NCBI GenBank assembly: GCA_017411405.1
Contig: JAFQQE010000014.1
Coordinates: forward strand, 1,067 to 65,066
Direction: 5' to 3'
Length of the DNA stretch: 64,000 bases
Source of the DNA: Bacilli bacterium
Lineage (GTDB): Bacteria > Bacillota_I > Bacilli_A > RF39 > UBA660
The position numbers and the translations under genes are program-made. Below are positions 29,121 to 42,527 of this stretch, piece by piece. The notes beneath the pieces were generated by a model. That model was not told the DNA's origin. It ran no database searches and worked only from the letters and a program-made list of their open reading frames with translations. How positions within the stretch are numbered: position 1 is the stretch's first letter; each line of letters begins with the position of its first letter.

Positions 29121-29381
29121 ATGAACGATATAAAATTTAATTCCTTAAATGAATTATATACAAGATTATTACCAGCATTAAATACTAAAGTAAATGAGTT
29201 GAAACTTAATGGGATAAGTTATATTAAAGTTGATGATATATGGGATTATTTAAGAATGCATAAATGGAATAAAAGTAGTAATCTTACTTTAAGTGAATGT
29301 GTAGATGATATATTAAATACAAGTGACTTAGAATATAAGAAATATATGAAAAATAAAATGAGTAGTATTTTAGGTGGGTGA
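29121..29381 (+). CDS. comN: ComN-like post-transcriptional regulator
   Basis: LLPALNTKVNEL...GISYIKVDDIWDYL...KW motif. In B. subtilis comN lies in the same chromosomal block upstream of relA-dtd. Confidence 0.7.
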   Translation: MNDIKFNSLNELYTRLLPALNTKVNELKLNGISYIKVDDIWDYLRMHKWNKSSNLTLSECVDDILNTSDLEYKKYMKNKMSSILGG

Positions 29382-31528
29382 AAAATTTGGAAACTATAAA
29401 TTATATTATAGAAAAATATAAAAACGATGGATTAGAAAGTGATAAGTTAAATTTAATAAAAGAAGCTTATCTTTATGCAGAAAAAAAACATGAAGGCAAG
29501 AAGCGTAAAAGTGGTTGTGATTTTATTGAACATCCTCTAGAAGTTGCAAAAATCTTAACTGATATCAATGTTGATGATACTACAATAGTAGCAGCATTAG
29601 TACATGAAACTATAAGTGAAAGTGATGCTACTAAAGAAGAATTAGAAGAATTATTTGGCATAGATGTTGCAAAAATTGTAGAATCCCTAACTAAGATCAA
29701 TAAGTTAAAATTAAATGATTCTAGTGAATCCGGAAGCATATATTTAAGAAAAGTTCTTGTAGGACTTTCAGAAGATGCGAGAGTTTTAATTATAAAACTA
29801 GCAGATAGATTACATAATATGAGAACACTATCTTACTTGCCAGAATATAAGCAAAAACAAAAAACTATTGAGACTATGAATGTTTTAATTCCTATAGCAC
29901 ATAGATTAGGGATAAATAGCATTAAAAGTGAGTTAGAAGATCTAAGTTTAAAATATTCTAAACCTGAAGTCTATAATAGTATACTTGAAAAATTAGATGG
30001 GACAAGAGAAGAACTAAATAAAGTATTAAATGATATGTTAGAAAGTATTAGTGAAATACTTAGTAGTCATAATATTAAATTTAAAATTAAAGGTAGAGTA
30101 AAAAGTGTATATAGCATATATACTAAATTATGTACCGGTCGTAAATGGAATGATATCTACGATATTTTAGCTATGAGAGCAATAGTAGAAAATATAAGCG
30201 ATTGTTACTTAGCTGCCGGATTAATACATTCTAAATATAGACCAATACCAAAACGTTTTAAAGACTATATAGCAATGCCAAAGGCAAATATGTATCAAAG
30301 TTTACATACATCAGTATTTGGTGATGATGGACACATATTTGAAATACAATTAAGAACAAAAGAAATGGATGAAATAGCAGAAAATGGTATAGCAAGTCAT
30401 TGGTCTTATAAAGAACATACATCAGGTAATATTAAAAACTTAATGGACCAAAAATTAGAACTATATAAAAATATAATAGATAGCCATGCAAATGATGAAA
30501 GTGATGAAGCATTCGCAAAATCTATGGAAGAAGAATTATTATCAGATTTAATTTATGTATTTACTCCAAAAGGTGATGTAATGGAGTTACCTCAAGCATC
30601 TACACCAATTGACTTTGCATATAGAATACATACTAATGTAGGAGAAAAAATGGTGGGTGCAATAGTAAATGAAAATATTGTACCATTAGATTATAAATTA
30701 CAAGATGGAGATATTGTAAAGATTAAGACTGATCCAAATTCTAAGCCAAACAAAAACTGGTTAAATATAGTAAAAACAACACAAGCAAAAAACAAGATCA
30801 AATCATATTTTTCAAAAATTGATAAAGAAAAATATATAGAAAATGGTAAAGATTTATTAGAAAAAGAGATTAAAAAACAAAAACTAGTTATTAAAGAAGT
30901 ATTAAGCGATAATAATATAAATAAATTATGTAAAGATTTAAAAGTTAAAGATCTAGAAGAAATATATTTAAATATAGGATCACTAAGATATACAGCAACC
31001 TATATAATTAATTTAATATATGAGGACAAAAAGAACGTACAAGATATTTTATTAGATAAAGTATTAAATAATAAAATAGAAAGTAAAAACAATTATAAAA
31101 AAGACATAATTGTAGATGGTTGTGATGATATATTAGTTAATATTGCAGATTGTTGCCATCCAGTAAAAGGTGATGACATAATTGGATATATAACTAAAGG
31201 TAATGGAGTAACTGTACATAAAAAAAATTGTGCTAATTTAAAAGGAATAGATACTAGATTAATTAGTGTTAGTTGGAATATGGATAGTGATAATTTATAT
31301 ACATCTAAATTAAAAATATATACATTTGATTCAAATAATAATTTATTAAATATAGTAACAAAAGCAAGTTTAAAAAGTGTCGTTATTTCATCTATAAACG
31401 AATTTAATTCTAATAATAAATATGGATATGATGTAATTGTTAAAGTAAAAAATAAAACTGCTTTAGAAGATTTTAAAGAAAGTATACAAACTTTACCATT
31501 TGTATCTAAAGTAGAGATAGAGGAATAA
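29378..31528 (+). CDS. rel: Long RSH (p)ppGpp synthetase (Rel), hydrolase motif degenerate
   Basis: HD, SYNTH (GRVKSVYSIY, YDILAMR, RFKDYIAMPKANMYQSLHT, EIQLRT), TGS (TPKGDV..DFAYRIHT), ZFD (CCHP..C) and ACT domains. Confidence 0.95.
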   Translation: MKNLETINYIIEKYKNDGLESDKLNLIKEAYLYAEKKHEGKKRKSGCDFIEHPLEVAKILTDINVDDTTIVAALVHETISESDATKEELEELFGIDVAKIVESLTKINKLKLNDSSESGSIYLRKVLVGLSEDARVLIIKLADRLHNMRTLSYLPEYKQKQKTIETMNVLIPIAHRLGINSIKSELEDLSLKYSKPEVYNSILEKLDGTREELNKVLNDMLESISEILSSHNIKFKIKGRVKSVYSIYTKLCTGRKWNDIYDILAMRAIVENISDCYLAAGLIHSKYRPIPKRFKDYIAMPKANMYQSLHTSVFGDDGHIFEIQLRTKEMDEIAENGIASHWSYKEHTSGNIKNLMDQKLELYKNIIDSHANDESDEAFAKSMEEELLSDLIYVFTPKGDVMELPQASTPIDFAYRIHTNVGEKMVGAIVNENIVPLDYKLQDGDIVKIKTDPNSKPNKNWLNIVKTTQAKNKIKSYFSKIDKEKYIENGKDLLEKEIKKQKLVIKEVLSDNNINKLCKDLKVKDLEEIYLNIGSLRYTATYIINLIYEDKKNVQDILLDKVLNNKIESKNNYKKDIIVDGCDDILVNIADCCHPVKGDDIIGYITKGNGVTVHKKNCANLKGIDTRLISVSWNMDSDNLYTSKLKIYTFDSNNNLLNIVTKASLKSVVISSINEFNSNNKYGYDVIVKVKNKTALEDFKESIQTLPFVSKVEIEE

Positions 31529-31529
31529 T

Positions 31530-31973
31530 ATGAAAGTAATAATACAAAGAGTTAAAGAATCAAGTGTTTCTATAAATAATGAAGTATATAATTCTATAAA
31601 TAATGGATTTATGATACTTGTAGGATTTACTGAAGGAGATACTAGTATAGATATAGATTACATAATAAAGAAAATAGTAAACCTACGAATCTTTGATGAT
31701 GAATCTGGCATAATGAATAAAAGTATAATAGACGTTGGTGGTAGTATACTTTCTATTAGTCAATTTACTCTTTATGCAGATACAAAAAAGGGAAATAGAC
31801 CAAGTTATATTAAAGCATTAAAAGGCGAATTATCTACTAAATTATATGATGAATTTAACGAAAAATTAAACAAAATAGTCCCAACTAAAACAGGAATATT
31901 TGGTGCTGATATGAAAGTTAGTTTAATTAATGATGGCCCTGTAACTATAATAATAGATAGCAAGGATAAATAA
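31530..31973 (+). CDS. dtd: D-aminoacyl-tRNA deacylase
   Basis: [29 protein letters not shown]. Confidence 0.96.
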
Positions 31974-32257: not shown

Positions 32258-32286
32258 TTGCATAATATTACGTGGTGGGTTATAAT
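32258..32286 (+). promoter_or_regulatory. SigA promoter of the higBA-like operon
   Basis: TTGCAT, 17 nt, TATAAT; RBS AGGAAAGG and ATG at 32312. Confidence 0.72.
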
Positions 32287-32311
32287 ATGTATACAGGAAA
32301 GGTTTTGGCAT

Positions 32312-32638
32312 ATGATAATAACAAAAAGTAAAAATTACAATAAATCTTATAATAAATATATTATAAAAAAACATTTAATATTAGAAAAAGAAAGAATAAA
32401 TAATATTGAAAATATTATAATTTCATCAAAAAATTTACAAGATTTATTAAATAATCCTTATAAAAATATATATCATATTGAACAAAAACAAGGAAATTTA
32501 AAAGAATATTATACAGCAAGAATAAATAATAAAATGAGACTAATAATGAAACCTGTTGGAGATTATCCATATAATATTTTAGAAATAGAAACTATAGAGT
32601 TTCAAGATATAGATAATAAACATTATGGGGAGGGTTAA
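32312..32638 (+). CDS. higB: HigB/RelE-superfamily toxin (plasmid maintenance killer-like)
   Basis: 108 aa, basic. HIEQKQGNLKEYYTARINNKMRLI resembles the HigB L-x-G-x-L...S-x-R-(I/V)-N...R-(L/I) pattern; C-terminal HY; toxin-first order. Confidence 0.7.
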   Translation: MIITKSKNYNKSYNKYIIKKHLILEKERINNIENIIISSKNLQDLLNNPYKNIYHIEQKQGNLKEYYTARINNKMRLIMKPVGDYPYNILEIETIEFQDIDNKHYGEG

Positions 32639-32639
32639 T

Positions 32640-33659
32640 ATGAATGGATTTGGACCTATGTTAAAAGATTATTTAGAATATAATAAAATTTCACAAAGTG
32701 ATTTTGCAGACAGGTTAGAAATATCTTTAAAACATATGAACGAAATATTAAATGATAATACTAATATAAGTGAAGAATTAATGCTATCTATTAGTTTAAT
32801 TACTGATATTGATGTAAATTTAATATTCTATGTAGAAAATAAAAAAAGAATGTATAACTATTTAATAAAAAGATATGGGACTGAAAAAAATATAGAAGAT
32901 TTATTAAATTCTTATTATATAAAAGAAATGTATAAATTAAATTGGATAAAATTAAAAGATAAAGAATCATTCGTACAAAATGCATTAGATTTGTTAGAAT
33001 ATTTAAAAATATCTAACTTTGATAATATAAATAATTATATAGATAAAAGAATACTATATAAAAAGAGTGATAATGCTAATTTAACTAAAATATTTTTATG
33101 GATAAAAAGATGCGATGAATTGATAAAGAAACAAAATGTAACAGAATATAAAAAAGATAAATTAAATGAGTTATTAAAAGAATTAATAGAAGAAAGAAAT
33201 AATAAATTCAATAAAGAAAAACTTATTAAATTATTTAATGAACATGGGATATATTTAGTAATAGAAGATGCATTAAAAGGAACAAAAATAAGAGGTTGTA
33301 CAATGGTTAAAGGTAATAATCCTGCAATATATTTAACCACTTACTTAAAAGAAAAATCGTCTTTTTACTTTACTTTATATCATGAATTATCCCATGTAAA
33401 AAGTGATTATAATAGTTTGAAAAGTAAAATCATTATAAACGATGGAGACTTAGAAACTAAAAGTGATAATTTTGCATTAGAACAAATGATAAGTGAAAAA
33501 ATATATAAAGAAATACTCATGAATAGAAATCATGAAAAAGAAATATGTAAAAACAATAAAATACCTTTATCATTTCTTTATACAAGACTCGCATATGAAG
33601 GTATTATAAAATATAATTCTAAAGAATATTTAGCTAATAGAGAATTATTAAATGAATAA
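32640..33659 (+). CDS. higA: HigA-type HTH antitoxin fused to an ImmA/IrrE (M78) metallopeptidase
   Basis: N-terminal XRE HTH (FGPMLKDYLEYNKISQSDFADRLEISLKHMNEIL); FTLYHELSHV (HExxH) and LETKSDNFA in the C-terminal domain. Confidence 0.78.
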   Translation: MNGFGPMLKDYLEYNKISQSDFADRLEISLKHMNEILNDNTNISEELMLSISLITDIDVNLIFYVENKKRMYNYLIKRYGTEKNIEDLLNSYYIKEMYKLNWIKLKDKESFVQNALDLLEYLKISNFDNINNYIDKRILYKKSDNANLTKIFLWIKRCDELIKKQNVTEYKKDKLNELLKELIEERNNKFNKEKLIKLFNEHGIYLVIEDALKGTKIRGCTMVKGNNPAIYLTTYLKEKSSFYFTLYHELSHVKSDYNSLKSKIIINDGDLETKSDNFALEQMISEKIYKEILMNRNHEKEICKNNKIPLSFLYTRLAYEGIIKYNSKEYLANRELLNE

Positions 33660-34720: not shown

Positions 34721-34822
34721 ATGGATAAAAAATTAGATATAATTATTGCGATAGTAGTATTTTTAATAGTAGTAATAGTAGGAATAGTAATAGGTTATTT
34801 GCTATATAAAGGAATATTATAA
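34721..34822 (+). CDS. 33-aa single-TM small protein (MDKKLDIIIAIVVFLIVVIVGIVIGYLLYKGIL)
   Basis: AAGGAG RBS at 34708-13; the stop TAA overlaps the ATG of the next gene (TAATG). Not in the ORF track. Confidence 0.68.
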   Translation: MDKKLDIIIAIVVFLIVVIVGIVIGYLLYKGIL

Positions 34823-35778
34823 TGAAAAAGATGAAGTTAAAAAAGAAAGTAAAAAGATTATTTATATTATGTATAATTTTAATTATAGGATTAGTTATTG
34901 GATATAATAAATATAAAGAATATCAATATAAAAAGACTAATGAATATAAATTAACTGTAGTAGGGTATACATTAGATGAATCTAAAATAATAATAGATAA
35001 ATTGAATAATGAAAATGAAAATTATTTTATTAATAATACTAAAATAGAATATATAATAGATTTAATTAATGAAAAATATTTTTTAGAGAAGAATTTACAT
35101 GAATATATAGATTATAAAAATAATAATAAAAGTAAAGAACTTAATGAAGTAGTTGCTTTAGTAAACGTTGGTGCTAATAAAGATTGGTATGATGTAAAAA
35201 AAGTTAAACCAACGGATCTTTCTAAAGGAGATTTAATATTAGTTAATAAGTTTAATTATTTGACTAAAGATTATGTTCCAGAAGAAATAACTTCTATAAG
35301 TTTAAGTTATGCTTATTCTGATAATAAAGTAAGTAAAAGATGTAACGATGCTTATATAGAAATGGCCAAAGCAGCAAAAGAGGATGGTATAAAACTAATG
35401 GCTAATAGTACTTATAGAACTTACGAAAGACAAGAGAAAGTATATAAAGATTATTATTATTCTAAAGGAATAAGCTATGCCGATAAATATGCAGCTAGAG
35501 CGGGATATTCAGAACATCAAACTGGACTTGCAATAGATATATTCACACCAAGTCATCCAACAACTAGTACGTTTGAAAATAGTGATGCATTCGTTTGGTT
35601 AACAAATAATGCGCATAAATTTGGATTTATATTAAGATATCCAAAAGGAAAAGAACATTTAACAGGATATGCATATGAATCATGGCATTATAGATATTTA
35701 GGTAAAGATATAGCAACTAAAGTATATGAATCTGGCTTAACTTATGATGAATATTATGCATACTATTTAGAAAATTAG
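34822..35778 (+). CDS. M15B D-Ala-D-Ala/L,D-carboxypeptidase (VanY/LdcB family), membrane anchored
   Basis: STYRTYERQ, ARAGYSEHQTGLAID (SxHxxGxAxD), ILRYPKGKE..TGYAYESWHYRY (ExxH); N-terminal TM. Confidence 0.9.
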   Translation: MKKMKLKKKVKRLFILCIILIIGLVIGYNKYKEYQYKKTNEYKLTVVGYTLDESKIIIDKLNNENENYFINNTKIEYIIDLINEKYFLEKNLHEYIDYKNNNKSKELNEVVALVNVGANKDWYDVKKVKPTDLSKGDLILVNKFNYLTKDYVPEEITSISLSYAYSDNKVSKRCNDAYIEMAKAAKEDGIKLMANSTYRTYERQEKVYKDYYYSKGISYADKYAARAGYSEHQTGLAIDIFTPSHPTTSTFENSDAFVWLTNNAHKFGFILRYPKGKEHLTGYAYESWHYRYLGKDIATKVYESGLTYDEYYAYYLEN

Positions 35779-35875
35779 ATAAATAAAAATTTAGTTAAAT
35801 AAACTAGATTTTTTTTAACTTTATTGATAATAATATAAATGAATGGTATAATTTTTAGAGTAAAGAGGTAAAAAT

Positions 35876-37015
35876 ATGTATAGAAAAACTTATGTTGAAA
35901 TAGATTGTGAAAAGTTAGAAAATAATATAAAAGAAATAAAAGAAAAATATAACGATTATAAGTACTATATTGGTGTAGTTAAAGCTAATGCTTATGGACA
36001 TGGCATAGAATCTGTTAAATATATGATTAAAGGTGGAATTAATTATTTAGCAGTATCTTCTTTAGAAGAAGCATTAAAGATAAGAAATATAGAAAAAGAA
36101 GTACCAATACTAATTTTAGAACCAATTAGTTATGATGGAATAAAAGTAGCAGTTGAAAACAATCTAACTATTACTATTGATAATAAAGAATATTTTGATA
36201 AACTTTTAAAAGATAAAATAAATATTAAATTTCATATAAAAGTTGATTCAGGAATGAATAGATTTGGTTTCAAAAATAGTGAAGATATAAAATATGTTTT
36301 TTTAAATAGTACAAGTTCATTATATTTAGAAGGAATTTATACTCAATTATTTAGTGGTGTAGGAGAAACTTATAAAAAAGAATTAAATAAATTTAAAACT
36401 TTAACTAACAATATAGATTTAAATAAAATTGAAATAGTTCATTTAGATCGTTCATTAACTTTAGAACAACATGATAAAAATGAATTTGAAACTGGTATAA
36501 GATTGGGAATATTAATGTATGGATTTAATAAGCAAAGATATGCTTTATCTTGGAAGAGAAAACTATTAAATAAAATATTAAATAAGAAAGATAATTTTGT
36601 TCCATCTAAATTAGAATTAAAAACTGTATTAAAATTTTTTACAGAAGTTATTGAAATTAAGGATGTATCAAAAGATGAAATAATTGGATATGGTGGAATG
36701 TATGATAATAAAGAAAATGTTCGTATTGCTATTTTACCATATGGTTTTGCTGATTTCTCATTTATTAATAAAAGTTATGTATATATAAATGGAAAGAAAT
36801 ATAATATAGTTGTTAATTATATGGATATTACGGCAGTTATTATAGATGATGATATAAAAGTTGGAGATAAAGTAGAAATATTTGGTGAAAATATTAGTAT
36901 AAGAGAGGCTAGTAGATTAGCTAATGTTAATGTATATAAACTATTAACAAGTATTACTTATAGAGTACCACGTATTTATAATTATAAAGGAAAAAAGAAA
37001 GAAGTAGAATATTAG
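35876..37015 (+). CDS. PLP-dependent amino-acid racemase, alanine-racemase fold, divergent substrate pocket
   Basis: GVVKANAYGHG (PLP Lys36), HIKVDSGMNRFG, IRLGILMYG, IIGYGG (catalytic Tyr), MD motif and RVPRIY end. Several pocket motifs deviate from Alr. Confidence 0.88.
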   Translation: MYRKTYVEIDCEKLENNIKEIKEKYNDYKYYIGVVKANAYGHGIESVKYMIKGGINYLAVSSLEEALKIRNIEKEVPILILEPISYDGIKVAVENNLTITIDNKEYFDKLLKDKINIKFHIKVDSGMNRFGFKNSEDIKYVFLNSTSSLYLEGIYTQLFSGVGETYKKELNKFKTLTNNIDLNKIEIVHLDRSLTLEQHDKNEFETGIRLGILMYGFNKQRYALSWKRKLLNKILNKKDNFVPSKLELKTVLKFFTEVIEIKDVSKDEIIGYGGMYDNKENVRIAILPYGFADFSFINKSYVYINGKKYNIVVNYMDITAVIIDDDIKVGDKVEIFGENISIREASRLANVNVYKLLTSITYRVPRIYNYKGKKKEVEY

Positions 37016-37023
37016 GTGATTTT

Positions 37024-38256
37024 ATGAAAGATTTTAGAGCATTAATTATTGGTAATGATATAAATGCATATTATTTAGCAAGATGTTATCATGAATTAAC
37101 AGGAAAAAAAGCAGATTTAATAGGCCTTATAGTGCCCGGTGTTAAACCATATGCATATACAAGATATACAAAGATATTAAACATTAAATATGTAGAAAAT
37201 TTATGGGATGAAAAAGTATTTCTGAATGCTTTAAACGAATATTATTTAGAGCATAAAAAAGAAAAAATATTATTAGTAAGTAGTAATGAAACATATGGAG
37301 AATTTATTGCTAAGAATCAAGATAAATTAAAGAAAAAATTCTATTTCAATTATCCTAGTGTAGATTTACAAAATACTCTAGTAAATAAAGAAAAATTTTA
37401 TAAAGCATATGAAAATAGTATAATAGATCTACCAAAAACAATATATTATGATTGTAATAAAGATGATAAAATAGACAAAGATATTATGTTTCCTGTAATC
37501 GTAAAACCAGCGAACGTTATATTATTTAAACATATTACATTTAAGGGTAAGAAAAAAATATATAGACTAAATTCAATGGAAGAACTTAATGAAGTAATAA
37601 ATAATTTTAAAGTTGGGGGATATAATGATACTTTAATTATTCAAGAATATATACCTGGAGACGATTCTAAATTATTTGATGCAGTAGTGTATGCTGATAA
37701 AGATAGTAAAGTAAAATTAGTGTCTTTTGCACAAATAGGATTACAAGAACATGCACCTAGTATGATAGGAAATGCTGCTGTTATAATAAATGGTTATAGT
37801 GAATATCCTGGTGTTACAGAACAAATAAATAAAATAAAAGATTTTATTGAAAGTATAAATTATCAAGGATTTGCTGAGTTCGATATGAAATACGATGAAC
37901 GAGATGGTAAATTTAAAGTAATGGAAATTAATGCAAGACAAGGTAGATGTTCATACTATATAACTCCGTGCGGATTTAATTTAATAGAAATACTTGCACG
38001 TGATTTAATATTTAATGATAGTATTGAATATCAAGTAGTAGAGAAACAACAATTAGAAGTTTTTGTACCAAAATGTATAGTAAAAAAATACATAGTCAAT
38101 GAAAAATATAAAGAAAAAGTTCTGGAACTTTGGAAAAGTAGAGTAAATCCATTAGATTATAAAAAAGATAATGGTATATTAAGAAAATTATTATTACTTA
38201 AAATAAAATTAAATTATATCAAGGCTTATAAAGAAAATATTTGGGATTGGAATTGA
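37024..38256 (+). CDS. asl: ATP-grasp D-aspartate ligase (Asl family)
   Basis: IGNDINAYYLARCYHE, FPVIVKPAN, LIIQEYIPGDD, IGNAAVII, FAEFDMKYDERDG.FKVMEINARQGRCSYY match the enterococcal/lactococcal Asl pattern. Confidence 0.82.
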   Translation: MKDFRALIIGNDINAYYLARCYHELTGKKADLIGLIVPGVKPYAYTRYTKILNIKYVENLWDEKVFLNALNEYYLEHKKEKILLVSSNETYGEFIAKNQDKLKKKFYFNYPSVDLQNTLVNKEKFYKAYENSIIDLPKTIYYDCNKDDKIDKDIMFPVIVKPANVILFKHITFKGKKKIYRLNSMEELNEVINNFKVGGYNDTLIIQEYIPGDDSKLFDAVVYADKDSKVKLVSFAQIGLQEHAPSMIGNAAVIINGYSEYPGVTEQINKIKDFIESINYQGFAEFDMKYDERDGKFKVMEINARQGRCSYYITPCGFNLIEILARDLIFNDSIEYQVVEKQQLEVFVPKCIVKKYIVNEKYKEKVLELWKSRVNPLDYKKDNGILRKLLLLKIKLNYIKAYKENIWDWN

Positions 38257-38260
38257 TAAC

Positions 38261-40096
38261 ATGTGTGGATTTTGCGGATTTGTAAGTAAAGAAAATACTA
38301 AGAATAAAAAAAAGATAATAAAAGAAATGTCAGATAGAATTATACATAGAGGTCCAGATAGTGATGGATACTATGTAGATGAAAATATTGCTATGGGATT
38401 TAGAAGATTATCTATAATCGATTTAGAAGGTGGTGATCAACCACTATATAATGAAGATAAAAATATTGTTGTAATGTTTAATGGAGAAATATATAATTTT
38501 AAAGAATTAAGAGATGTTTTAATTAATTTAGGACACAAATTTAAAACAAATAGTGATACAGAGACAATAGTTCATGGTTATGAAGAATATGGTACAAACA
38601 TATTTAATAAATTAAGAGGAATGTTTGGAATTATTATATATGATAAAAGAAACAATACATTTATTGGAGCAAGAGATTACTTTGGAATAAAACCTGTATA
38701 TTATTATAATAATGATAATTTATTTATGGTAGGATCAGAAATAAAATCATTTCTAAGTCATCCTGATTTTCAAAAAAAATTAAATAAAAAAGTATTAAGT
38801 CTTTATTTATCATATGGAACAAATCATATGGAAGAAACATTTTTTGAAAACACCTATAAATTAAAACCAGGGCATTTCTTTATATATAAAGATGGAAATT
38901 TAGAAATTAAAGAATATCATAAATTAAAATATGAGAAATGTGATGAATCTTTTGATTACTATAAAAACTTAGTTAGAGAAACTATAGAATCTTCTATAGA
39001 ATATCATCAAATAAGTGATGTTGAAGTAGGAAGTTACTTAAGTGGTGGAGTAGATTCATCATATGTAGTAAGTAAAGTTAAGCCAGATAAAACATTTACT
39101 GTTGGATTTGAAGGTAAAGGATTCTCTGAAATAGAATATGCTAAAGATCTGTCAAAACACTTTAAAATAAAACATTATTCAAAAGTAATTAGCGGCGATG
39201 AATTTTTTGAAATATTGCCTACAGTTCAATATCACTCAGATGAACCTAGCGCGAATGTTTCTACAGTTCCTCTGTATTTCTTGAGTAAATTAGCTCGCAG
39301 CAAAGTTAAAGTGGTTTTATCCGGAGAAGGTGCAGATGAAATGTTTGGAGGATACAATGAATATAATGATTCTAAATATGAAAAATTATATTTATCATTG
39401 CCTCATTTTATTAGAGCGACAGTAGCTGGCATTATAAAATATTTACCATACTTTAAAGGTAAAAATACTTTAATTAAATATGGCAAAAATTTAGATAAAA
39501 GATATTACAATAAAACAGAAATGTTTTTACCTAACGAAGTTAATGATGTATTAAATAGTAAATATCAAACTAATTTAAGTCCATTTGATTTATGCAAACC
39601 TTATCATGATGAAGTTAAAAAATCTGATGATGTATTAAGAAAAATGTATATAGATTTAAATTTCTGGTTACCAAACGATATACTTTTAAAAGCAGATAAA
39701 ATGTCTATGGCAAACAGTGTAGAATTGCGTGTACCATTCTTAGATAAAGAAGTATGGAATCTATCAAAAAAAATTCCAACAAAATATTTTGTAAAAGACG
39801 GAGAAACTAAACATATTTTTAGATGTATTGCTAAAGAAACTATTCCTGAAAGTTGGTCAAAAAGAAAGAAGTTAGGTTTCCCTGTTCCATTTGGTAATTG
39901 GATTAAAGAAGAAAAATATTATAATAAAGTAAAAGAAATATTCAATGAGGATTTTACAAAAGAGTTCTTTAAAATTGACGTAATAAATAAAATGCTAGAT
40001 GATCATTATAATGGAATCCTTGGTAATGGTAAAAAAATCTATACCATATATAGTTTCTTAATATGGTATAAAAGATTCTTTATAGAAGAAAATTAA
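38261..40096 (+). CDS. asnB: Glutamine-hydrolysing asparagine synthetase (AsnB/AsnH-type amidotransferase)
   Basis: N-terminal MCG, HRGPD, GFRRLSIID, NGEIYN, LSGGVDSS, LSGEGADEMFGGY, ELRVPFLD. Confidence 0.93.
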   Translation: MCGFCGFVSKENTKNKKKIIKEMSDRIIHRGPDSDGYYVDENIAMGFRRLSIIDLEGGDQPLYNEDKNIVVMFNGEIYNFKELRDVLINLGHKFKTNSDTETIVHGYEEYGTNIFNKLRGMFGIIIYDKRNNTFIGARDYFGIKPVYYYNNDNLFMVGSEIKSFLSHPDFQKKLNKKVLSLYLSYGTNHMEETFFENTYKLKPGHFFIYKDGNLEIKEYHKLKYEKCDESFDYYKNLVRETIESSIEYHQISDVEVGSYLSGGVDSSYVVSKVKPDKTFTVGFEGKGFSEIEYAKDLSKHFKIKHYSKVISGDEFFEILPTVQYHSDEPSANVSTVPLYFLSKLARSKVKVVLSGEGADEMFGGYNEYNDSKYEKLYLSLPHFIRATVAGIIKYLPYFKGKNTLIKYGKNLDKRYYNKTEMFLPNEVNDVLNSKYQTNLSPFDLCKPYHDEVKKSDDVLRKMYIDLNFWLPNDILLKADKMSMANSVELRVPFLDKEVWNLSKKIPTKYFVKDGETKHIFRCIAKETIPESWSKRKKLGFPVPFGNWIKEEKYYNKVKEIFNEDFTKEFFKIDVINKMLDDHYNGILGNGKKIYTIYSFLIWYKRFFIEEN

Positions 40097-40152: not shown

Positions 40153-40842
40153 ATGAAAGTAAAATATTTTTATAAAGATGGTAAAATAGAAGTAATAGAT
40201 GATAATGACTTAGATAAAAATTTAATTTATGATTATCAAGATAATATACATGAAATATTTGAATTAGAAAATATAAACGAATATTTAGAAAAAGAAAAAA
40301 TACTTCAAATAAAAGTAATTAAAGATATTAATAAAAAAATAAATTCAAATAACGAAGTTATTAAAATTTGTAAAATTATATGGATATCTGTTAATATATT
40401 TATGTCAATAACTGCTCTAGTAAATATATTATATTTTATAATTTGGTTTTTATTATCTTCTATAATTTGTTATATTCCTTATATATCAAAAAAAGGAAAC
40501 AATAAAATGTTAAAAAAAGAAATAAACGCTAAAGATAAAAAAATAAAAACCATTAATATAGAATTAAAAAAGAATAACAATATATTAAAAAAATTATATG
40601 AAGATAAAAAAATTACTCAAGATAAATTAAATCATATAAAAAAGAAATTTAATTATATTTTTATAAGAGAAGAATTAGAAAAATTAAAAAAATATTTAAT
40701 GTTAGTAAATGATATAGGATATAATGAAAAAGAATATAGAAAATACTATAATAAAGATATATTAGAAGAAAAACTAAAAGAAGAATATAATAGCTACGAA
40801 ATAAAATTAATTAATAAATATTTTGAAGATAATAAACAATAA
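40153..40842 (+). CDS. Hypothetical protein with two central TM helices and coiled coils
   Basis: GGAG RBS and its own TG-n-TATAAT promoter; hydrophobic segment at about aa 74-115. Confidence 0.65.
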   Translation: MKVKYFYKDGKIEVIDDNDLDKNLIYDYQDNIHEIFELENINEYLEKEKILQIKVIKDINKKINSNNEVIKICKIIWISVNIFMSITALVNILYFIIWFLLSSIICYIPYISKKGNNKMLKKEINAKDKKIKTINIELKKNNNILKKLYEDKKITQDKLNHIKKKFNYIFIREELEKLKKYLMLVNDIGYNEKEYRKYYNKDILEEKLKEEYNSYEIKLINKYFEDNKQ

Positions 40843-40886: not shown

Positions 40887-42527
40887 TTAATCAGAAACTT
40901 TAATATGTAATTTTGTTTTAAATTTATTAATCATAGATTTACCAAATATATCTTCTATTACATTTAATTTATAAGTTATAAATATATAAATTATACCTCC
41001 AATAACAGAATTAATTATAATTGTTATTATAGCGCCTAATTTACTATATATATCAAAATTTAAGAAATTGTTAAGAATTAATAAACTTATAACCATAACT
41101 AATATAGCAAACATAGATTTATAGAATATATTAATAGTATTTTTAAATTTAAGATCTTTACTTTCTTTCTTTAAGAAATGAATATTTAATGAAATACTTA
41201 ATATATATCCTAAGAAACTTGCAAATATACTACCTAAGAAACTTTCTATACCTATATATTTACATAAATACATTAAAGGAACATCTAATAAACCATTAGC
41301 TAAAAATCCTGCTATAACTGCAATATATACAGCTTTAAATTTATTCATAGATTGTAACATAGTAGAAGTAGATAAGTTTATATTAACTAATAAAGCAGTA
41401 AAGATATTAAATTGTAATATCAAACCACCATATTGATTTGTGTTATAAAATATAGTCCATATAGGAGTAGATAAAATACATATTCCAACAGTTAATGGTA
41501 AAGATGCAAAGACTATAATTTGTAACGCTTTATTAATTTTTAAATTAACATTTTTAAAATCATTTTCTACATAACTAGAAACTATATTAGGTATTAATGA
41601 CATTGTCATACCTAATACAATTGAGTTTACAATCATACTTATTTTTGGACACCAAGTAGAAATAGAAGAAGTAATGAATTCAACATCTGTTGCACTATAA
41701 CCTAAATTTTGTATAGTTCTTGAAACAAGAATCATATCTGTTGAAGAATATATATTTGTTATTAAATTTATTATTATAATAGGTATTGAATAATAGATTA
41801 TTTTCTTTATAATTTCTTTATTAGTTATTTTATCTTTTTCATATTCTTTATCTAGATTTAATTTATTTTTGTTTTTTCTTATTTTAATTAATAAATAGAT
41901 ATCAGCAGCAACCGCACCAAAGAATGCTCCTAATAAAGATATTCCAACAGCTAAAGTTAAACTTTGATTTAGTAGTTTATAAACTGTAAATGAACCAATT
42001 AATATAACTGCAATTCTAACTATTTGTTCTAATAATTGACTGACACTTGAAGGTGTCATAAATTTATGACCTTGTAAATATCCTTTAGTTACACTTAAGA
42101 ATGGAACAACTAAGATTGATGTTGCAACACACCTTATAACAAAAGTAACATCACTTATTGTATTTCCACCAGTCATATCTCCTAAAATTAAATGTGCAAA
42201 TGAACGAGCAAATATAAATAAGGCTAAGAACGATACAATAGATAAAATAGTTATTATTTTTTTTGACAATTTGTATGCTCTTGTTTTTGCTTCTATATAA
42301 CCTAATGTATCATATTCGCTAATAATTTTACTTATAGCATTAGGAATACCTGCAGATGATATACTTAAAAATATCAAATAAATATTATAAGCATAACTGT
42401 ATAAAGCGGCTCCTTGTGATCCTACTATAGAATAAAATGGAACAACATAAACCATGCCTAGTATTTTTATTAATACTATAAAAAAGGTTGCAATTAAAGT
42501 ACCTTCTATAAAACTATTTTTTTTCAT
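40887..42527 (-). CDS. MOP-superfamily flippase (YtgP/SpoVB/MurJ-like)
   Basis: SFIEGTLIAT..KILGMVYVVPF, YSYAYNIY...SAGIPNAISK, KGYLQGH, SQLLEQIVRI; about 14 TM helices. Confidence 0.86.
   Translation of the reverse strand: MKKNSFIEGTLIATFFIVLIKILGMVYVVPFYSIVGSQGAALYSYAYNIYLIFLSISSAGIPNAISKIISEYDTLGYIEAKTRAYKLSKKIITILSIVSFLALFIFARSFAHLILGDMTGGNTISDVTFVIRCVATSILVVPFLSVTKGYLQGHKFMTPSSVSQLLEQIVRIAVILIGSFTVYKLLNQSLTLAVGISLLGAFFGAVAADIYLLIKIRKNKNKLNLDKEYEKDKITNKEIIKKIIYYSIPIIIINLITNIYSSTDMILVSRTIQNLGYSATDVEFITSSISTWCPKISMIVNSIVLGMTMSLIPNIVSSYVENDFKNVNLKINKALQIIVFASLPLTVGICILSTPIWTIFYNTNQYGGLILQFNIFTALLVNINLSTSTMLQSMNKFKAVYIAVIAGFLANGLLDVPLMYLCKYIGIESFLGSIFASFLGYILSISLNIHFLKKESKDLKFKNTINIFYKSMFAILVMVISLLILNNFLNFDIYSKLGAIITIIINSVIGGIIYIFITYKLNVIEDIFGKSMINKFKTKLHIKVSD

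Follow-up and report, generated by a model that had tools for sequence, protein, structure and literature searches.

The closest described counterpart of the system reported here is the RacD/AslA (Aslfm)/AsnH pathway, by which the D-Asp (D-iso-Asn) cross-bridge of Lactococcus lactis and Enterococcus faecium is made (PMC4155827, PMC13631041). The logic of the racD-aslA/asnH genes is known (PMC4155827), and in a review of October 2026 the formation of D-Asp in bacteria is still ascribed to RacD (PMC13631041). A second precedent is VanT (PDB 4ECL), a paralogue with the alanine racemase (Alr) fold that is dedicated to an adjacent ligase (VanG or VanC); its specificity was expanded with retention of the alanine activity, and the determinants lie around residues 202 and 354 (PMC4542195). 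An altered substrate range is also found in the Alr-fold enzymes BsrV, Bar, Lyr, and Orr, which are periplasmic or catabolic and carry a small residue at position 354. None of these four enzymes is known to act on acidic amino acids. The subject of this analysis is an Alr homologue, here called AlrX, that is encoded at 35876..37015 (+) in a window of 64,000 nucleotides from contig JAFQQE010000014.1 of a Bacilli bacterium. The source assembly (GCA_017411405.1) is 1.04 Mb in size, has 22% G+C, and is 78% complete; the relatives of this genome were deposited as gut metagenome-assembled genomes (MAGs) of uncultured Bacilli, Tenericutes, or Clostridia.

A separate clade of Alr-fold enzymes, so far undescribed, includes AlrX and is co-transcribed and co-inherited with a clade of ATP-grasp ligases of the D-aspartate ligase (Asl) family. 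From the gene context and the sequence comparisons below, AlrX would supply D-Asp, probably alongside D-Ala, and a probability of roughly 0.5 is assigned to this reading. As in the RacD/AslA/AsnH pathway, a racemase is combined with an ATP-grasp ligase, with or without an amidotransferase of the asparagine synthase type. Here, however, a pyridoxal 5′-phosphate (PLP) enzyme of the Alr fold is encoded upstream of the ligase, whereas the cofactor-independent two-Cys RacD is encoded downstream of it. In the literature, neither an Asp racemase of the Alr fold (fold type III) nor a module of this kind was found described. A preliminary description of the window had taken bacterial Asp racemases to be PLP-independent, which is too broad in that some bacterial fold-type II SerR homologues racemize Asp (PMC11850409); an example of fold type III was not found in the literature.

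The fold of AlrX (379 amino acids) was established using Pfam profiles (both PF01168 and PF00842 match), the TIGR00492 model, sequence alignments, and an AlphaFold2 (AF2) model. The AF2 model has a predicted local distance difference test (pLDDT) value of 93.5 and a predicted template modeling (pTM) score of 0.91, and consists of the two domains of Alr, a triosephosphate isomerase (TIM) barrel and a beta domain. The top 50 Foldseek matches to this model are all Alr-family proteins with TM scores of ∼0.8–0.89, the best being alanine racemases at 0.83–0.89. Residues were compared in a pairwise alignment with Bacillus anthracis Alr (2vd8), which covers the full length of AlrX at an identity of ∼32–34%, and in a MAFFT alignment of 220 sequences. 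Positions quoted below for Alr follow the alanine-racemase reference numbering. Both alignments confirm the initial observation that the catalytic Lys36, Arg129, Arg209, and Tyr272 are kept. The PLP lysine K36 (codon 35981–35983) is found within VVKANAYGHG, in agreement with the motif V-x-K-A-N-A-Y-G-H-G. R129 (Arg136 in Alr, for the carboxylate/O3′) lies in GMNRFG, R209 (Arg219, for the pyridine N) in GIRLG, and Y272 (the second catalytic base Tyr265′; codon 36689–36691) in IGYGG; these three residues are invariant in 69/69 ligase-linked homologues. S193, M316, D317, and Y354 (codon 36935–36937) are also retained. In its fold, its dimer-type active-site residues, and its PLP cradle, AlrX agrees with the housekeeping alanine racemases of Geobacillus stearothermophilus (1SFT), B. 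anthracis (2VD8), and Staphylococcus aureus (4A3Q), to which it is 32–34% identical. No match of AlrX to PF01177, the RacD-type family with two catalytic cysteines (CNT...GCTE), was obtained in the Pfam search; AlrX is therefore not a member of the RacD family, though its function may be RacD-like.

Two assignments to known Alr-fold racemases of other specificity were considered and rejected. AlrX has Y354, D191, and V353 in place of the Asn354, Tyr202, and Thr353 of a VanT-type serine racemase, and scores 153 bits against the vanT model NF033131, for which the cutoff is 460. VanT further differs by its own or a paired membrane transport domain, whereas AlrX is soluble and has Arg/Lys203 and a rebuilt entryway. 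A broad racemase of the Bsr type is excluded by the retained Tyr354 and the absence of a signal peptide; unlike BsrV, Bar, Lyr, and Orr, AlrX is cytoplasmic and biosynthetic by context.

The AlrX gene is followed after 8 bp by the gene for an ATP-grasp carboxylate-amine ligase (37024..38256, +, 410 amino acids) and this, after another 4 bp, by the gene for a glutamine-dependent amidotransferase of the AsnB/AsnH type (38261..40096, +, 611 amino acids). The tight operon with an Asl-like ligase that had been proposed earlier is thus real, and the two genes form a conserved module. A promoter-like site (TTGATA-17-TATAAT with an extended −10 TG; 35824..35852, +), which agrees with the consensus at 11 of 12 positions and is a consensus match only, and a ribosome-binding site (AAAGAGG; 35863–35869, +) precede AlrX. 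Within the 8.5 kb scanned, the promoter-like site ranks in the top three; this region has fewer such sites than shuffled sequence. The amidotransferase matches PF00733, PF13537, and PF13522 and, at 503 bits, TIGR01536; it has the N-terminal MCGF nucleophile and both the class II GATase and the Asn_synthase portions. For the ligase, no Pfam match, no NCBIfam model, and no PDB relative were found, only a weak match to PRK12767. The Joint Genome Institute (JGI) calls a 73%-identical homologue “D-aspartate ligase”, and the cluster names of other homologues (“carboxylate-amine ligase”, “ATP-grasp domain-containing protein”) are uninformative. The ligase is homologous (25–37% identity) to ligases encoded beside two-Cys RacD genes, and one tree holds all three clades of these enzymes.

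The conservation of the module was determined in two samples of ligase loci. In the first, which comprised 80 loci with ligase homologues at 41–83% identity, an AlrX homologue is encoded directly upstream on the same strand in ∼70 cases. The second sample came from a scan that was started at the Lachnospiraceae end of the ligase family and that confirmed 355 relatives in species-level genomes; among the 79 loci newly fetched from these (the 80th, L063, was already in the first sample), AlrX is upstream in 74. RacD is found beside the ligase in 0/79 loci of the second sample and in none of the 80 loci of the first. The carriers are MAGs of Bacilli, Clostridia, Lachnospiraceae, and Erysipelotrichaceae, and the only isolate among the 160 loci is Lachnospiraceae bacterium YSD2013. 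An AsnB-like gene lies 3′ of the ligase in about half of the AlrX-type loci.

The position occupied by AlrX in these loci is filled by RacD in others. When 399 genomes of the same class were sampled, ligase homologues were found at 25–38% identity, and for nine such ligases (25–37% identity) the next gene encodes a protein of 222–241 amino acids with the GG(L/M)GP, CNT, and GCTE motifs of the PLP-independent aspartate racemases. In three of the nine the gene order is Asl-RacD-AsnB, and one of these three (G431) is from the GTDB family of the window itself. The AsnB-like partner is common to both module types, being present in the RacD-type modules L164, L166, and L168 at 44–56% identity. The most distant group of ligase relatives, clade A, was represented by 80 loci of the order Asl-MurE-RacD or Asl-MurE-AsnB; RacD is within 3.5 kb in 45/80 of these and AlrX in 0/80. 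Clade A includes ligases of Halobacillus, Ornithinibacillus, Paenibacillus, Alkalibacterium, and others, several of which have been described with D-Asp bridges. A tree of the ligases unites the AlrX-linked enzymes in a single clade (n = 84, support 95); the sister group of this clade is RacD-linked, and so is the outgroup. Across >230 loci, AlrX and RacD are mutually exclusive beside Asl. Displacement of one enzyme by an unrelated one with the same job would be expected to leave such a pattern, and the simplest history suggested by the tree would be a single exchange of the racemase that partners a D-Asp ligase.

The racemases were analyzed in the same manner using 157 Alr-family sequences. 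All 69 ligase-linked proteins fall into one clade of 93 members. In genomes with two Alr proteins (G031, G034, G036, G039, G010, and G047), the ligase-linked copy is AlrX, and the second copy lies elsewhere and is canonical, with N/A at 203, I at 352, and R at 309. The gene context was determined for five further representatives with R203; wherever their contigs extend far enough, an Asl-sized gene comes next.

The pocket motifs listed in the preliminary description as rewritten (YTQL, HLDRS, GFADF, VNYMD, and VYK) are all present in AlrX. Relative to Alr, His166 is replaced by Q157 (YTQL), Asn203 by R192 (HLDRS; codon 36449–36451), Tyr284 by F291 and Gly288 by F294 (GFADF), and Glu355 by K355 (VYK). 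The proposed change of Cys311 to Tyr is ambiguous; the VVN-YMD loop is one residue shorter than G-R-I-C-M-D, and Y315 replaces either I310 or C311. Arg309′ is gone (N314). Three replacements absent from that description are those of Asp171 by Gly, of Arg290′ by Ile, and of Ile352 by Asn. His166 of the Arg219-His166-Tyr265′ network and the conserved entryway of Alr (D171, R290′, R309′, I352, and Y284′) are thus substituted in AlrX by Q157, G, I, N, N, and F291, respectively, and by this comparison the whole middle layer of the entryway, as defined for Alr (PMC3245724), is rebuilt. An insertion of ∼15 residues between the two domains and membership of a separate clade tied to an ATP-grasp ligase further set AlrX apart from the housekeeping enzymes.

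The substitutions differ in their distribution over the clade. The sole clade-wide hallmark of the pocket is the change of Asn203 to Arg or Lys, which is found in 64/69 linked sequences, versus N in most others; in the second sample of loci, H-x-x-[RK]-[ST] is present in 68/74 AlrX proteins. Further clade-wide changes are I352 to N/T/S, R309′ to D/E/N/T, and D171 to G. His166 is retained in 49/69 ligase-linked homologues, and the 26-row subclade of the window alone shows H166Q, Y284F, G288F/Y, a Tyr in the 311 loop, and E355K. The suggestion that Asl-linked Alr homologues form a clade sharing R192 and Y315 is therefore borne out for the single clade and its basic residue 203, and not for Y315; Q157, F291, and K355 have to be given up as hallmarks for the same reason.

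A mechanism can be proposed in which a free L-amino acid would be racemized by AlrX through two-base PLP chemistry involving Lys36 and Tyr272′, and the AsnB-like enzyme would then amidate a remaining carboxylate. The amino acid would most probably be D-aspartate, which would make AlrX a nonorthologous replacement of the PLP-independent RacD. The candidate partner of the beta-carboxylate is Arg/Lys203, which lies next to the PLP phosphate and to Tyr354. In S. aureus Alr, the side chain of Asn203 holds a water molecule that is bound to OP3 of the PLP phosphate and to the NH of Ser204 (PMC3245724). In VanT, Tyr543 is part of the hydrogen-bond network around Asn696 (Tyr354 in Alr) that sets the serine specificity (PMC4542195), and by offset this tyrosine corresponds to Alr residue 202. 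Arg203 is placed at the side-chain end of the pocket because of these two relationships. It is more likely that the specificity of AlrX would have been expanded, as in VanT, rather than retuned away from Ala, since Tyr354 is retained and AlrX is the sole Alr-fold protein in many genomes with Ddl. A bifunctional enzyme would be the natural reconciliation of this sole-Alr status with the coupling to the ligase.

Several observations weigh against D-Asp as the product. Tyr354 is retained in 67/69 linked sequences; this residue lies 3.5 Å from the methyl group of the substrate, a small residue is found in its place in VanT, BsrV, Bar, and Lyr, as in every characterized Alr-fold enzyme for a larger substrate, and the change of Asn696 in VanT (Alr 354) to Tyr lowers the turnover of serine 30-fold (PMC4542195). 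Arginines 290′ and 309′ of the entryway have been lost, frequently being replaced by Asp or Glu, and this looks odd for an acidic substrate. The initial argument that added basic residues and the operon point to an acidic substrate is thus weakened in its first half, with the basic charge gained in AlrX offset by the loss of Arg290′ and Arg309′ and with Tyr354 kept, and is strengthened in its second by the finding of the module in the RacD slot. Arg203 could merely add a contact to the phosphate. Six linked sequences, including one from the complete genome G032, are without a basic residue at 203. The raw two-by-two table of residue 203 and linkage reads 56/6/5/19, and a phylogenetically independent-pairs test of the same association, with 4–7 usable contrasts, was not significant. 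The association reflects very few independent events, and residue 203 is therefore treated here as a clade hallmark and not as a proven determinant.

The ligase and its acceptor introduce further reservations of this kind. The assignment to the Asl family is anchored indirectly, through RacD adjacency and the taxa of the homologues. The only MurE found in the genome of the window (C14:27493-28851, −) is short (452 amino acids) and has the DNPR motif of the enzymes that add meso-diaminopimelate (mDAP); unlike in the RacD/AslA/AsnH pathway, the acceptor may thus not be L-Lys. The acceptor may be mDAP, and the target of the AsnB-like enzyme may be mDAP (AsnB1-like) or the alpha-carboxylate of D-Asp (AsnH-like). 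The MurE encoded directly after Asl in L098/L099 reads EDPG, unlike the DNPR of the genome of the window, and the acceptor residue of the Asl branch may differ between carriers.

The alternative that survives best, which we consider unlikely and still take seriously, is that AlrX is an ordinary though divergent housekeeping Alr, that the linkage is one of co-regulated peptidoglycan genes, and that D-Asp is scavenged from the gut or made by another enzyme. The curated alr equivalog model TIGR00492 scores AlrX at 211 bits against a cutoff of 168, and the catalytic and PLP-binding residues are all retained together with Tyr354. AlrX is the sole PF01168 protein in its own genome, and the sole Alr-fold protein in 10/13 Asl carriers of the same genus and in 11/20 other carriers, including a complete circular genome of 1.2 Mb. 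Most of these sole-AlrX genomes have Ddl, which in the genome of the window is encoded at C14:137321-138490; any D-Ala that these cells synthesize for themselves must come from AlrX, their sole Alr-fold protein. Two sister genera (G016 and G017) have MurD and none of Alr, MurI, or Dat, which makes the scavenging of D-amino acids plausible in this family and renders the absence of another D-Asp source a weak argument. This alternative is opposed by three results. A separate paralogue clade stands beside the ligase even where a canonical Alr is present (the six genomes listed above and G011), and neither the mutual exclusion of AlrX and RacD at Asl over >230 loci nor the joint change of residues 203 and 354 with the type of partner ligase (see below) is explained by a plain Alr.

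Other sources of D-amino acids were searched for in the carrier genomes. No match to PF01177 or PF01063 was found in the genome of the window or in 15 genomes of the same genus, though MurD is present in the genus, and a tblastn search with RacD gave no match. In the 20 other carriers, the PF01177 matches are MurI (DSGxGG and GCTH(F/Y)P) save for one, and Dat is present in 2/20. The exception is a YgeA-like protein of 231 amino acids (MDMKTIGLIGGMSWEST..., GCTEIG) in YSD2013 (G031, C11:35737-36387), which might give that strain another, minor supply of D-Asp. YSD2013 carries AlrX-Asl-AsnB together with a canonical Alr and two Dat homologues. For D-Glu, and in some genomes for D-Ala, the candidate sources are uptake, a broad racemase, or another enzyme.

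The pocket of the racemase changes with the partner ligase, as expected if the racemase feeds the ligase. In a nested Alr subclade with Ser203 and His354, the 3′ gene encodes a different ATP-grasp protein of ∼340 amino acids (PF14397, ATPgrasp_ST). This constitutes a second racemase-ligase module, composed of a MurJ/SpoVB-like protein, the Ser203/His354 Alr, and ATPgrasp_ST, which was observed in G002:C4 (L186 6600–8800), G012:C128 (L189), L175, and L177. It occurs in genomes of the same genus that are without the Asl module (G002 and G012); G006 also has a Ser203/His354 Alr, and its contig ends before the position of the ligase. The genome of the window has two ATPgrasp_ST homologues (C13:8413-9255 and C18:8297-9130; 35–37% identity) without a Ser203 Alr. 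In the Asl-linked racemase P0245 (L178/L179), HAYDS at 200–204 is combined with Asn354, which is the VanT-like Tyr202/Asn354 signature, and HLYKS is found around position 203 in other members of the clade. The operon of P0245 has the order FemAB - AsnB - Alr - Asl. P0245 suggests that some modules may handle D-Ser or another residue; its possible counterpart is the context-less Asn696 “clade 2” of bioRxiv 10.64898/2026.10.22.760690.

A lesser chance is given to the proposal that the product of AlrX is some other D-amino acid, for example D-Glu, D-Asn, D-Ser, or a further polar residue, and that the ligase clade has shifted its specificity along with its racemase partner. The AlrX-linked ligases are only 33–37% identical to the nearest RacD-linked clade, and pockets vary within the racemase clade, as the Asl-linked P0245 and the HLYKS sequences demonstrate. 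Many carriers with MurD are without MurI and Dat, so that the source of D-Glu is missing as well, and L-Lys-D-Glu bridges exist in nature, as recorded in the Schleifer–Kandler classification of peptidoglycans. On the other side, the AlrX-linked clade is flanked in the ligase tree by two RacD-linked clades that diverged deeply, which argues that D-Asp is ancestral and stable in this ligase family, and the AsnB-like partner is shared by the two module types. D-Glu in particular is disfavored by genomes of the same genus that have neither MurI nor a basic-203 AlrX (G002 and G015), for which AlrX is no explanation of the D-Glu gap.

About equally doubtful is that AlrX is a multisubstrate racemase for small and acidic amino acids and, in gut Bacilli with reduced genomes like the present one, the only racemase of the cell, which would provide D-Ala for Ddl, D-Asp for Asl, and possibly D-Glu for MurD, with residues 202, 203, and 354 encoding the amino acid required by each ATP-grasp partner. 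The surrounding Alr superclade would then consist of racemases coupled to ligases, with Arg/Lys203 as the code for Asl and Ser203/His354 as that for ATPgrasp_ST, and the VanT-like variant would be marked by Tyr202/Asn354. Such an enzyme would explain why MurI, Dat, RacD, and a canonical Alr are missing. The argument that a sole racemase has to make everything is weakened by G016 and G017, which keep MurD without any of Alr, MurI, and Dat.

Very improbable is that AlrX is no racemase of free amino acids and acts instead as a moonlighting or regulatory protein or as an epimerase of a ligated precursor, since the change of His166 to Gln in the subclade of the window, the rebuilt entryway, and the 15-residue insertion, which would favor this, are countered by Lys36, Tyr272′, Arg129, Arg209, and a phosphate cradle that are intact and conserved clade-wide and by the standard Alr fold of the AF2 model; we know of no Alr-fold enzyme that acts on nucleotide-linked peptides.

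The genes on either side of the module are less well conserved with it. A D,D- or L,D-carboxypeptidase of the VanY/LdcB type with an N-terminal membrane anchor (34822..35778, +; PF02557 VanY, 1.5e-41) ends 98 bp 5′ of AlrX and is probably in its own transcription unit. It scores 125 bits against the LdcB model NF041194, below the cutoff, and adjoins the module in few related loci only (L029, L080, and L178). On the 3′ side, a hypothetical protein of 229 amino acids (40153..40842, +) with one hydrophobic segment and Lys/Glu-rich coiled regions has no Pfam or NCBIfam match and is conserved in one related locus only (L029, 40% identity); its gene may be the last of the unit and may not belong to the module. 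The convergent gene at 40887..42527 (−) encodes a SpoVB/MurJ-like flippase of the MOP family (546 amino acids; PF01943 and PF03023), which scores 140 bits against TIGR02900, below the cutoff. This flippase recurs beside the module in loci of the same genus and beside the module of Ser203 Alr and ATPgrasp_ST.

Additional genes were noted further upstream in the window. A GerM-like gene (PF10646; 33687–34613, −) is present together with the SpoVB-like gene in this reduced genome of ∼1 Mb deposited as Tenericutes/Bacilli, and both may be sporulation remnants or wall-related paralogues. At 32258–33659 (+), an open reading frame of 126 amino acids overlaps the start of a 344-residue protein with an N-terminal helix-turn-helix-like region and a YHELSHV metallopeptidase-like motif; the pair, which sits between the relA-dtd genes and the GerM-like gene, looks like the ImmA/IrrE-XRE type. 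At 29378–31973 (+), reading of the translations identified a RelA/SpoT homologue (716 amino acids) followed by the D-aminoacyl-tRNA deacylase Dtd (147 amino acids). The relA-dtd pair lies a few kilobases 5′ of the D-amino-acid module, and L047 and L178 also have a RelA homologue beside the module.

If D-Asp is indeed a product of AlrX, no earlier enzyme of the Alr fold (fold type III) would have been described for an acidic amino acid, and a known cell-wall pathway would offer a clean case of nonorthologous displacement. Residues 202, 203, and 354 would then provide a simple sequence rule for racemase specificity. Should AlrX be a plain Alr, a conserved alr-asl-asnB wall module is still defined, and the source of its D-Asp would then be in question. 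The module is not rare; the 355 species-level genomes of one pattern scan are almost all from uncultured gut and rumen Firmicutes, and a determinant of the cell-wall chemotype is thus mislabeled by annotation as “alanine racemase” and “hypothetical protein” across much of the gut microbiota. Synthesis of D-Asp by AlrX would bear on the supply of D-amino acids to the walls of gut bacteria with 1-Mb genomes and on the production of D-Asp in the gut.

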